In this document: positions 16,870 through 22,045 of the stretch, one piece after another
Numbering within the stretch: the first letter of the stretch is position 1
Layout: each line of letters starts with the position of its first letter
Origin: Candidatus Thorarchaeota archaeon
GTDB taxonomy: Archaea > Asgardarchaeota > Heimdallarchaeia > Hodarchaeales > Hodarchaeaceae
Length of the DNA: 32,000 bases
Assembly: GCA_048882505.1 (NCBI GenBank)
Contig: JBHLRO010000009.1
Location: 1-32,000, forward strand
Reading direction: 5' to 3'
The notes under the pieces: generated by a model
What the model saw: the letters and a program-made list of their open reading frames with translations, nothing else
What the model was told of the DNA's origin: nothing
Database searches by the model: none
Made by a program: the position numbers and the translations under genes

Positions 16870-16885
16870 AGGAGAGGAGAGAATC

Positions 16886-17647
16886 ATTTATAAGATCGTC
16901 CTTCTCAGACATGGTGAATCTACATGGAATAGGGAGGGTCTTTTTTCTGGTTGGACGGACGTAGATCTATCTGAACGTGGTGTACGGGAAGCGCAAAGTT
17001 CTGGCCAAATACTGAAGAATGAAGGCTACTCTTTTGATCTGGCCTATACCAGTGTCCTTAAACGAGCCATTCGCACACTTTGGATAGTCCTTGAAGAGAT
17101 GGATCTAATGTGGATACCAGTTCAACGGTCATGGCGCCTTAATGAACGGCATTATGGTGCCCTTCAAGGCTTAAACAAAAAAGAGACCGCCCAGAAACAT
17201 GGTGCAGAACAAGTGCTTATGTGGAGACGGAGTTACGATATTCAGCCACCTGCTCTAACCAAAAGCGATCCCCGCTATCCCGGACTAGATCCACGTTATC
17301 AAATGCTTAAGCCTGATGAGGTACCAGTTACAGAATGCCTAAAAGATACCGTAGCCCGAGTTCTTCCCTATTGGCATGATTCAATTGTCCCTTCTCTTAA
17401 AGCAGGAAGAAAAATTCTCGTTTCAGCTCATGGTAATTCTCTTCGTGCTCTCATCAAATATTTGGATGATGTTTCAAACGACGAGATCCTCAAATTAAAC
17501 ATTCCAACGGGAATCCCGCTCATTTATGAGCTGGAATGGGTTAATGGAGAGATGCACCCCATTAAACCTCATTATTATCTTGGTAATTCAGAAGAGATTC
17601 AGAAGGCCATGCAGCAAGTTGCAGACCAGGCAAAACTCACAAAATAG
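16886..17647 (+). CDS. gpmA: 2,3-bisphosphoglycerate-dependent phosphoglycerate mutase; 71 codons longer than the track ORF, probable ATT start
   Basis: In-frame (I)[14 protein letters not shown]...FSGWTDVDL...[11 protein letters not shown] upstream of ATG 17099; [23 protein letters not shown]. Confidence 0.95.
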
Positions 17648-18035: not shown

Positions 18036-18131
18036 TTTTCTTTACACCTTTTCTCCTAGTGTTGTTTTTAGTAGTTGATTTTTGGTCGTGAGCGTTTTTT
18101 ATCGCTCACACGAGGCAAAATATATGTACGT

Positions 18132-18139
18132 CTTATAAA
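18132..18139 (-). promoter_or_regulatory. Candidate TATA box of the histone gene
   Basis: Minus strand TTTATAAG about 100 nt upstream of the ATG. Confidence 0.45.
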
Positions 18140-18525
18140 GGTTACTCTAAGTTTCTTGTTCTATGATTGGTTGGAGGGGTATATACCAAGTCAACGATGG
18201 CCTCATGTCAACTCTAGCACTGGTTCTTGTTAACCCTAGCACTTAACCTCACCACCTTGATGAAGTGTGATTAATTCACATTGCAAAAGAATGAATCTTA
18301 CTCAATTTCTTCAAAATAATGAAGAAATGCCTTTTATTCTGGGATATCCACCCAAAAAATATTTCGTTCGTTTTCTAATATTACCCTATCTAATTTGGGA
18401 CGATTTAAACGAATTTATTGGTAATGAAAATCGGTCATTATCCTTTGGGTAAGGGTGAAGAAAAACGAAGTTAAATCAGAGAAAATTTATGAAGGAGATA
18501 CTAGGGGAATCATTTGGTATTCTCG

Positions 18526-19875
18526 ATGTCTTTACGTGAGAATCGCTTTTTTCTTGGCATCCTCATTCCGTTGTTTTATGAGGTGGGCTTAATTCAAGCC
18601 TACCTTCTATTTATGGCTGACAGATTCGAGTCTTTTTTGTTATTACCAATCTTTCTGCTTGCCTTTCCCGCATTCATTCTATATATTGGATCACCATATC
18701 TTATACTAAGAATCACACGAGCACCTGAACAATATAAAGCGGTGCTAGGGCAGAATATTGACAAAATATTTTTCTTAAAGAAGATTGATCTGGAAAAGGA
18801 AACTAAAGAAGAGCTAAAAACCAGCATTCACAAGGAATTGCTCCCAGAACTAATAAAGGTGTTTCGTCGGGGTTATATTGATTCCTATTTTACCCGAAAC
18901 GATGATATACCAGTCGAACGTATGCTAAGTATGAGGGAAGCATTGTTCCTTCTCGCTATAACTTTTGGGATTCTAAATTTACTAAATGTGATAACGGTAG
19001 TGTATTTGCATTTTGGTTCCATCGACCTAGATTTTCTGTTTATCGATCAAATAGTAAACCCAATAAACGTCATATTCTTTGCAGGACTATTTGGATTCTT
19101 TGTTATTCTTTCTTTGACTCTATTTTTCCATTCAAAAAGGAACTTGGGCAATTTGATTGGTATCTGTAGCTACAACCTCTCTCAAGAGGCCTACACCCAT
19201 GATATTGCAATCCGAACTCGCCAAATTGAACTCGATTCAGTACGTAGATTTCCATTGGATGACAAGATCGGCCACAAACTGGCTGCAAATTGGGATTTGG
19301 TTGCGCGCCTCTATTATGAATTTATCGAATCTCATATCAACGAAGAGATGCGTGATTATGCCCGCCAAGAGGTAGCAAGAACCCTTGTTCTAGAGCAGTA
19401 CTCTAAAATGCTTAATCGATTAGATTTACCTGAAGAAAAGAAGAAAGAACTGGAACTCCAGTTCTATCTTGGCCAGGGTATGACAGAAGCGATCAGTGAA
19501 ATCGTTGATTCCGAAGAGGAAACCGAATCCATCAAGCTGGATGTATTGTATGCCAACAAGAAACTTGAAACCTGGGAGGATATTGGAAATGATGAACGAG
19601 TATCCACCTTCCTCTTCAGCTGGCGGTCAACTGAAACGCTGTTTCGTCAACTTTTATGGCAGCGGAAGGCATATCCCACAGATGATCCGACCTGGCCAGC
19701 AATCGTTAACAGCTTGCTGCGAGAAAAACTTCTCACGATGAATGAGAATAAACAGCTAAAACAAATACGTCTGCGGCGAAATGCTATGCTTCATCGATCC
19801 CAAGATCGATTTGTGAGTAAGGAGGATATGGAAAATCTTCTTACGATTCTCCAGAAAGTGTTGGATCGGGTTTAG
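18526..19875 (+). CDS. 4-TM membrane protein with C-terminal HEPN-like domain (start ATG 18526 or TTG 18514)
   Basis: Four hydrophobic helices in a 2+2 arrangement; acidic helical linker; C-terminal SWRSTETLFRQLL...RRNAMLH (RNxxxH). Confidence 0.75.
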   Translation: MSLRENRFFLGILIPLFYEVGLIQAYLLFMADRFESFLLLPIFLLAFPAFILYIGSPYLILRITRAPEQYKAVLGQNIDKIFFLKKIDLEKETKEELKTSIHKELLPELIKVFRRGYIDSYFTRNDDIPVERMLSMREALFLLAITFGILNLLNVITVVYLHFGSIDLDFLFIDQIVNPINVIFFAGLFGFFVILSLTLFFHSKRNLGNLIGICSYNLSQEAYTHDIAIRTRQIELDSVRRFPLDDKIGHKLAANWDLVARLYYEFIESHINEEMRDYARQEVARTLVLEQYSKMLNRLDLPEEKKKELELQFYLGQGMTEAISEIVDSEEETESIKLDVLYANKKLETWEDIGNDERVSTFLFSWRSTETLFRQLLWQRKAYPTDDPTWPAIVNSLLREKLLTMNENKQLKQIRLRRNAMLHRSQDRFVSKEDMENLLTILQKVLDRV

Positions 19876-21163: not shown

Positions 21164-22045
21164 ATGACTCCTGAGAGCAATAACGATTCAAAAAATCTCC
21201 AAGCTCGGAGAAACACTCTAAATGATTTAACAGGAAAGCAATGGGTTCAATTAACAAAAAGTTGGTTTACCCTCAAAGTTCGGCCACGTTCCAGCAGTGA
21301 ACTTTCTCATCCTGGGAAATTTCCGAGTGAGCTCGTTTCCCGATTCCTTAGTTTCTTCACGAAAAAACATGGGTGGGTGATAGATCCGTTCCTGGGTTTG
21401 GGAAGTACCTTGCAGGCGTGTAGACAGCTCGAACGTAATGGAATTGGAATTGAACTCAATCCAGTATATGTCAAGGCCGCAAAGAAAAATCTCGCCCAGA
21501 AAAGCCTATTCGGCACAACAGAGCAAACGATTCTGCAAGGAAACGCGTTGGAGTTAGATATCCTTTTAGAGCGGTATTCGGAAAAGGTCGGTACTGAAAT
21601 CAAATTTGATTTTTGTATGACGTCTCCTCCCTACTGGAGTATGCTGAACAAACATAGAGGAGGCTCAGAATCTCAGCATAGGGATCGTAAAGAGAAGGGA
21701 TTACCCCTAGTATATAGTAAGGACCTCCAGGATGATATTGGAAACATAGAAGGGTACAATGAGTATCTTGAAAAGGTTTTCAGCGTATTTCACAAGCTGA
21801 AACCATTTATGAAAGAAAAAGGCTACCTTGTTGTAATCCTTCAAAATATTCGCGATGAATTCGGAAATTTCGTCCCGATAGCCTGGGACTTCTCGAACCT
21901 TATGAAAGAACTCTATGTTCGCAGACAGGAGCAAATTTGGTGCCAGACGGATAAAAAACTAGGAATCTGGGGATATCCGACCACATATGTGGCCAACGTC
22001 CACCATCACTATTGTTTGATTTTTCAAAAGCAAAAAAAACCCTAA
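21164..22045 (+). CDS. Amino-DNA methyltransferase (probably N4-cytosine); no cognate nuclease nearby
   Basis: HPGKFP, DPFLGLGST (SAM motif I), GIELN, TSPPYW (motif IV); motif I precedes motif IV. Confidence 0.85.
   Translation: MTPESNNDSKNLQARRNTLNDLTGKQWVQLTKSWFTLKVRPRSSSELSHPGKFPSELVSRFLSFFTKKHGWVIDPFLGLGSTLQACRQLERNGIGIELNPVYVKAAKKNLAQKSLFGTTEQTILQGNALELDILLERYSEKVGTEIKFDFCMTSPPYWSMLNKHRGGSESQHRDRKEKGLPLVYSKDLQDDIGNIEGYNEYLEKVFSVFHKLKPFMKEKGYLVVILQNIRDEFGNFVPIAWDFSNLMKELYVRRQEQIWCQTDKKLGIWGYPTTYVANVHHHYCLIFQKQKKP

Follow-up and report, generated by a model that had tools for sequence, protein, structure and literature searches.

A stretch of 32,000 nucleotides (nt) from an archaeon labelled Candidatus Thorarchaeota (Asgardarchaeota, Heimdallarchaeia, Hodarchaeales, Hodarchaeaceae; GenBank assembly GCA_048882505.1, contig JBHLRO010000009.1, positions 1 to 32,000), hereafter the window, carries on its + strand a gene that reads from an ATG at 18526 to a TAG at 19873-19875 and encodes 449 residues. 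The product combines four hydrophobic segments, a helical linker and a C-terminal domain (Table 1), and an initial annotation, made from the letters alone, had proposed it to be a membrane-anchored HEPN nuclease. Here we follow this protein and its relatives through fold searches, alignments and genome comparisons, which support the HEPN assignment and place the family in a single Asgard class. On balance, we consider it probable that the protein is a membrane-anchored, cytoplasm-facing, dimeric HEPN endoribonuclease with a cellular role.

Table 1. Coordinates of the gene, its upstream region and the parts of its predicted product
Feature	Position	Strand	Basis
Complete coding sequence, 449 aa + stop	18526..19875	+	Start fixed by alignment with 21 homologues
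Upstream intergenic region, 490 nt, presumed promoter and leader	18036..18525	.	No Rfam match, no permease remnant
Predicted transmembrane (TM) helix 1, residues ~8-30, contains Glu19	18547..18615	+	Hydropathy
Predicted TM helix 2, residues ~38-62	18637..18711	+	Hydropathy
Predicted cytoplasmic helical insert TM2-TM3, residues 63-138, K/R-rich, invariant Y117 and E138	18712..18939	+	
Predicted TM helix 3, residues ~139-161	18940..19008	+	Hydropathy
Short acidic loop, predicted outside, residues 162-179, conserved L-D-F...D-Q-I motif	19009..19062	+	Alignment, charge counts
Predicted TM helix 4, residues ~180-202	19063..19131	+	Hydropathy
Helical linker or stalk, residues 203-325, low AlphaFold2 (AF2) confidence, long helices predicted	19132..19500	+	
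HEPN domain, residues 326-449	19501..19872	+	AF2 model, fold searches, relatives' Pfam HEPN-clan matches
E370-x3-R374, second HEPN motif E-x3-[KR], helix 2	19633..19647	+	Motif definition (PMC3710099)
R415-x2-R418-N419-x3-H423, predicted catalytic motif, end of helix 3	19768..19794	+	Invariance, register with HepT R-N-x3-H

A TTG at 18514, four codons 5' of the ATG, is not supported as the start. The ATG is preferred because the homologues all begin at the methionine of M-(S/T)-L-R-E-N-R-F.

The C-terminal HEPN domain

Members of the HEPN superfamily (Pfam clan CL0291) share an up-down core of four helices in which an insert separates helices 2 and 3, an R-x4-6-H motif that ends helix 3 and whose arginine is directly followed by a polar residue (N, D or H), and an acidic residue in helix 2, typically as E-x3-[KR] (Anantharaman, Makarova, Burroughs, Koonin and Aravind 2013, PMC3710099). 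The superfamily is further characterised by a composite active site in a face-to-face dimer and by metal-independent RNA cleavage to 2',3'-cyclic phosphate ends. The AF2 model of residues 325-449, folded with an alignment (predicted local distance difference test, pLDDT, 89.8; predicted template modelling score, pTM, 0.82), has this core: helix 1 spans residues 326-348, helix 2 355-379, helix 3 405-423 and helix 4 432-448, and the insert between helices 2 and 3 holds a short helix (390-399). R418-N419-x3-H423 closes helix 3, with the polar asparagine after the arginine as the hallmark requires, and E370-x3-R374 lies within helix 2, in the segment SWRSTETLFRQLL (residues 365-377). The initial annotation had located RRNAMLH at 19774-19794, which is exact (residues 417-423), and had given the C-terminal domain about 90 residues; it comprises about 124 (326-449), one more helix (326-348) being included.

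HEPN structures lead both fold searches. In an exhaustive structural comparison (VIA) against 48,161 PDB representatives, the top matches are 1wwp (Z 12.0, root-mean-square deviation 2.5, 112 residues aligned), 1jog (Z 11.9) and the HEPN toxin 8xdj (Z 11.7), all of them HEPN proteins; further matches include YutE (1ylm, Z 10.2), AF0298 (2hsb, Z 10.0), the HEPN toxin 7ae2 (Z 9.8), Csm6 (Z 9.7) and HepT (5yep, Z 9.6), and sacsin HEPN, Las1, AbiV, RnlA and HepS are found lower in the list. The best Foldseek match is again a HepT, 6m6w (probability 0.98, E 0.078).

Taken by itself, the window's protein has no significant match in Pfam, PADLOC, NCBIfam or PDB sequences; the best it reaches is E 0.013 for DUF6548 and E 0.13 for DUF4145, a family of the HEPN clan, and a language-model atlas gives weak leads for the HEPN part (DUF4145 0.82, RnlA-type 0.80). 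When 29 domains of the family are scanned singly, DUF4145 is matched by nine (best 8.3e-8), HepT-like by seven (best 1.6e-6) and HEPN_RiboL-PSP by four, and P0040, a full-length relative, scores above the cut-off of DUF4145 (25.1 vs 23.1 bits). A profile built from these 29 domains brings RN..H into register with the R-N-x3-H of HepT in a weak match (E 0.24). Searched among short proteins, the HEPN-domain profile finds fragments of the same family only.

The motifs were followed in two alignments. The first is class-wide: its 26 full-length sequences come from five taxonomic families, and 17 of them are distant genes taken from genomes. R415, R418, N419 and H423 do not vary in it, and neither does Glu19, far away in the N-terminal part. 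The second (A3) holds the 29 diverse HEPN domains, whose identity to the window's protein goes down to about 14-20%. Here D339, R415, R418, N419 and H423 are invariant and W350, R367 and E370 nearly so (E370 at least 90%), while the position four after E370 is R in 21 domains, K in six and Q or E in the other two. In addition, R-x2-R-N-x3-H is present in every representative cluster of the family that has the domain. Because R415, R418, N419 and H423 are invariant across the alignments and the representative clusters, conservation of the motif is far beyond chance as judged from these sequences. Thus fold, motif position, the second motif and the family-level Pfam matches together support the assignment of the predicted C-terminal domain to HEPN, as the initial annotation had proposed, and the R, N and H on which it relied are kept in all the aligned domains.

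HEPN nucleases are active as dimers according to the initial annotation, and in our predictions the domain does pair with itself. Two copies folded with the family alignment reach an interaction prediction score from aligned errors (ipSAE) of 0.48 (median of three runs) vs 0.09 for the highest-scoring of three controls; at least 79% of the contacts are common to the runs and the partner pLDDT is at least 84. This passes our ipSAE mark; among proteins solved as pairs 20 of 30 reach it, and among those solved as single chains one of 23. Because HEPN dimers have already been solved, the pass may reflect likeness to these structures. The predicted interface is symmetric and formed by helices 1 and 2, and includes D339, R367, E370, R374, N419 and L422, so that the model gathers the conserved motif residues about the two-fold axis, the arrangement known from canonical face-to-face HEPN dimers.

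Membrane module, linker and topology

A 19-residue hydropathy scan finds the four hydrophobic segments in the 2+2 layout that had first been described. In 26/26 sequences three parts are K/R-rich, namely the N-terminus, the 76-residue TM2-TM3 loop and the stretch that follows TM4, and both short loops are K/R-poor and acidic. The TM1-TM2 loop (residues 31-37) is short, K/R-poor and predicted to lie outside; the TM3-TM4 loop has 0-2 K/R vs 2-5 D/E in every one of the 26. Because of this bias, read by the positive-inside rule, and the even number of TM helices, the protein is predicted to be N-in/C-in, with its N-terminus, central loop and HEPN domain in the cytoplasm, the same side on which the initial annotation had put them. 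The linker that follows TM4 had been described as a long acidic helical region. It is helical in the model, and its charge (17 K/R vs 21 D/E) makes it mildly rather than strongly acidic.

Conserved polar positions are found within the membrane module itself. Glu19 (18580-18582), invariant across the class-wide alignment, is replaced in outlying relatives, by Q in some representatives and by G in the variant P0074 described below. In the outer loop, which contains D174-Q-I176 (19045-19053), I176 is invariant and D174 nearly so in the 26 sequences. Glu19 and the conserved acidic outer loop are candidates for sites at which the membrane module would bind an ion or a ligand.

A fold search with the full model gave no meaningful match for the TM region, where pLDDT is 50-75, and this does not show the TM fold to be new; the language-model atlas likewise held nothing for the TM part. 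Among longer proteins, a profile of the TM module finds two variants only. P0069 (558 aa; L036:500-2176) keeps the four-TM module and the linker and has a nucleic-acid-binding helix-hairpin-helix (HhH) module added after the HEPN domain, a fusion that fits a nucleic-acid substrate. P0074 (606 aa; L037:1578-3398) keeps the module and the linker too, with a trypsin-like peptidase instead of the HEPN domain. The altered ends of these two proteins suggest that the TM module is an anchor or sensor on which the cytoplasmic enzyme can be exchanged. The four-TM module is a new family without detectable relatives outside this group.

Distribution and gene neighbourhood

A word-indexed search returned 39 proteins, all from Heimdall/Hodarchaeales assemblies, at 54-81% identity and nearly all 448-461 aa long. 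The database copies that carry a source name are hypothetical proteins, except two Joint Genome Institute records labelled as a generic ABC-type multidrug transporter. In an exhaustive HMMER search of 1.84 billion representative proteins, the family makes up 38 clusters, most of them full-length (447-485 aa). The gene occurs in 57 of 400 Asgard genomes, all of the window's class. By taxonomic family it is found in 14/21 (f1), 2/2 (f2), 1/1 (f3), 23/31 (f4), 4/12 (f6) and 12/12 (f7) genomes, and in no other taxonomic family sampled among the 400 genomes (for example 0/135 in f20). Genomes that have the gene carry a single copy, and the HEPN profile, run against the window's genome, detects no further one at E up to 1. 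Four taxonomic families are represented by more than one sequence in a maximum-likelihood tree, and each of them groups as a single clade with 100/100 support, as expected under vertical descent. These results fit a vertically inherited, single-copy cellular gene of one Asgard class (Heimdall group) better than a mobile toxin or a defence-island gene.

On its 5' side in the window, the gene is preceded by a MarR-like small protein, a His_Phos_1 (phosphoglycerate-mutase-type) gene, an archaeal histone on the opposite strand and the 490-nt spacer; on its 3' side come a convergent PhzF-family gene and then a DNA methylase. The same order is kept across the genus, with one or two histones. Synteny is stable inside families and differs between them, and the neighbours are housekeeping genes. 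The spacer holds no open reading frame (ORF) of at least 60 aa with homologues, no Rfam family and no permease remnant, and the kilobase around it has the lowest G+C of the window (0.363). The His_Phos_1 ORF (16870-17647) gives 182 aa from its first ATG (17099) vs 249-250 aa for its counterparts in related loci, so that its true start must lie upstream, where no canonical start codon is listed. The methylase gene (N6/N4 type) lies at 21164-22045, and a restriction enzyme is not among the annotated neighbours.

In the 21 loci examined (the window and 20 related), there is no MNT, cas, kinase, cyclase or recognised defence gene, which bears out the earlier remark that no kinase, cyclase or MNT gene lies nearby, and a conserved partner gene is absent. 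A lactate permease was considered for this role: part of the genus has it immediately upstream of the HEPN gene, the two overlapping by 4 bp or standing 5 bp apart (L003:4322-5995, L005:4691-6004), but it is reduced to fragments in L010 and L015 and missing from the window's genome (94.55% complete) and several others, and was therefore rejected as an obligatory partner. In f4, the same-strand genes upstream are a choline-transporter-like gene, an HhH protein, MobB and an unknown gene, and a GDPD phosphodiesterase overlaps the 3' end. The HhH protein of this context was considered as a paralogue of P0069 and rejected, the HhH repeats being all that the two have in common. In f6, an ABC ATPase with an ABC-2 permease, or an MFS transporter, lies upstream, and in one locus a PLD-like gene lies downstream. 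In f7, the gene is next to a divergent glycerate kinase with Vps4 beside it; this Vps4-type ATPase (MIT, AAA, Vps4_C) is two genes from the HEPN gene (L019:8109-9290; counterparts in L020, L021, L033 and L035).

A same-strand transporter just upstream thus recurs in three unrelated contexts (L022:1-7213, L030:3986-8334, L031:3042-6439: choline-transporter-like, MFS, and ABC-2 with its ATPase), and in two of the three a lipid-type phosphodiesterase follows just downstream (GDPD with a 26-nt overlap, PLD-like). The recurrent transporter is a weak hint and may be chance; a rough count makes it a chance event of about 2%.

Proposed function and relation to known HEPN proteins

To account for these observations, we propose that the protein is an integral membrane protein with both ends in the cytoplasm, in which four TM helices would hold a cytoplasmic insert between TM2 and TM3 and an acidic outer loop between TM3 and TM4, and in which a helical stalk would lead to a canonical, cytoplasm-facing HEPN domain. 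Two chains would pair via HEPN helices 1 and 2, and probably via the stalk too, and this pairing would join two E-x3-R and two R-N-x3-H motifs at the two-fold axis. The dimer may then act as a metal-independent endoribonuclease on RNA close to the inner membrane face, and the four-TM module would be its anchor and probably the regulatory or sensing part that gates it.

Several points count against this proposal. The window's protein is not significant against any Pfam or PDB sequence profile, so that the HEPN assignment rests on fold, motifs and relatives, and a Z near 12 can come from the arrangement of a helical bundle alone, which means that the fold match is not decisive by itself. The gene is missing from some good genomes of the class, for example two single-contig genomes of genus g8 and G075 (93% completeness), and is therefore dispensable, widespread but not essential. 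Finally, the C-terminal modularity of P0074 and P0069 is also typical of conflict systems.

The latter point raises the question of a defence function, an option that had been put forward from the start: the protein could be an abortive-infection effector, in which damage to the membrane or a phage protein, once sensed by the TM module, would set the HEPN RNase free to halt growth. Abi, toxin-antitoxin and CRISPR-ancillary RNases account for many HEPN families (PMC3710099); HEPN toxins, AbiV, HepS and RnlA are found among our fold matches, and the replacement of the HEPN domain by a peptidase in P0074 resembles effector exchange. The fit is nevertheless poor, because the gene is single-copy and vertical, its presence tracks the class and its synteny with housekeeping genes is stable. 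No defence gene, integrase-flanked island or MNT context was seen in the loci examined, and the matches to PADLOC 2.0 models are isolated and weak, below the level of membership (PDC-M14B, E 0.016 for the window's domain; best 1e-4 in one of 29 members). We regard a defence effector as unlikely.

Equally unlikely in our view is that HEPN serves here as a non-nuclease module, for oligomerisation or for RNA or nucleotide sensing, that controls a TM channel or pore. There is a precedent in Csx28, an accessory protein of type VI-B systems, in which a TM helix and a HEPN-fold domain build an octameric pore via face-to-back contacts without a functional HEPN nuclease interface (10.1101/2021.11.02.466367). 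Both are membrane proteins whose cytoplasmic part has the HEPN four-helix fold, and the class-wide invariant TM1 glutamate and the conserved acidic outer loop would suit an ion path. However, Csx28 has one TM helix and a divergent motif and depends on Cas13b, whereas the Asgard family has four TM helices, invariant R, N and H, a nearly invariant E370 and a canonical E-x3-R. The oligomer predicted for it is symmetric and dimeric, the interface holding the motif helices, and no cas13b or other cas gene adjoins it in any locus examined.

If the nuclease is active, one can go further and envision a membrane-gated RNase, in which the TM module, by way of its TM1 glutamate and acidic outer loop, would respond to a cue from the membrane or from outside and switch a cytoplasmic HEPN dimer whose substrates are mRNAs under translation at the membrane. 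The messages of the upstream transporters found in several lineages would then be candidate targets, and the system would be a convergent archaeal counterpart of IRE1-type mRNA decay. So specific a scheme is rather improbable, slightly more so than the two preceding alternatives.

A membrane-anchored HepT-like toxin of a type VII toxin-antitoxin pair, with its antitoxin encoded elsewhere, is very improbable. HepT (DUF86, PF01934; 5yep, 6m6w, 7bxo) has the same fold and the R-N-x3-H in register, and here too a homodimer is predicted; HepT is the best Foldseek match and gives the only in-register sequence alignment to a solved structure, and the Pfam HepT-like family is matched by 7/29 members. 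Unlike HepT, the protein has no MNT or nucleotidyltransferase gene adjoining it in the 21 loci, is membrane-anchored, has 449 aa vs about 130 and is not mobile but vertically inherited. The tyrosine that is AMPylated in HepT (R-x4-H-x-Y, as H-D-Y) is absent from the family, which has H-R-S, H-E-P or H-Q-S, the residue two after the histidine being S, P or similar and never Y; moreover, the window's genome is without any HepT-like or DUF4145 match. Just as doubtful is kinship with the membrane-bound HEPN RNases of eukaryotes (the KEN domain of IRE1, or ERMARD/C6orf70), of which the protein would be a relative or forerunner in archaea. The host class is the archaeal group closest to eukaryotes, and the protein, like these (PMC3710099), would be a membrane-tethered, cytoplasm-facing RNase of the superfamily, IRE1 (kinase + KEN) being activated by oligomerisation. 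But the helices follow the canonical order, with the motif before the last helix, rather than the KEN permutation, a kinase match and a luminal sensor domain are both absent, the KEN, DUF4209 and Las1 Pfam models are unmatched at E <=0.01 by any member, IRE1 and RNase L chains are absent from the top 50 of the fold searches, and the families that come nearest, DUF4145 and HepT, are prokaryotic. No specific sequence or structural affinity to IRE1 or ERMARD was found, and the IRE1-like logic suggested by the initial annotation stands as an analogy, not as kinship.

The membrane-anchored, cellular HEPN endoribonuclease that we favour has its closest parallels in bacteria. Membrane-associated HEPN proteins have been predicted for three bacterial groups, with stimulus-dependent RNA degradation at the membrane, and in the DUF4145-type group a single TM helix bears a WP signature (PMC3710099). 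As in these proteins, a cytoplasmic HEPN domain with an intact R-x4-H would be tethered at the inner face by N-terminal TM segments; DUF4145 is also the nearest HEPN family of the Asgard proteins (9/29 members), and the proposed logic, a TM sensor with a HEPN RNase, is the same. The differences lie in the architecture, with four TM helices, a 76-aa insert and a stalk of about 120 aa vs one TM helix, and in the signature, as the only WP of the window's protein sits in the HEPN insert and none in the TM segments. Unlike its bacterial counterparts, the family is archaeal, restricted to one Asgard class and vertical, and its TM module has no detectable outside relative. The four-TM module without detectable relatives, the long stalk and the restricted vertical distribution are thus what sets it apart from the groups described in 2013. 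In the searchable literature that combines the terms HEPN, transmembrane and Asgard, we found no description of the family.

Toxins, abortive-infection effectors and CRISPR accessories make up most of what is known of HEPN RNases. A HEPN protein that is inherited vertically and predicted to be membrane-tethered, in the archaeal class nearest to eukaryotes, points to membrane-localised RNA cleavage as a possible normal function of the cell. Given that a single gene without a partner is involved, it would offer a simple system for asking how a membrane domain controls a HEPN dimer. If the membrane-gated scheme were true, the archaea most closely related to eukaryotes would have a convergent counterpart of regulated mRNA decay of the IRE1 type.

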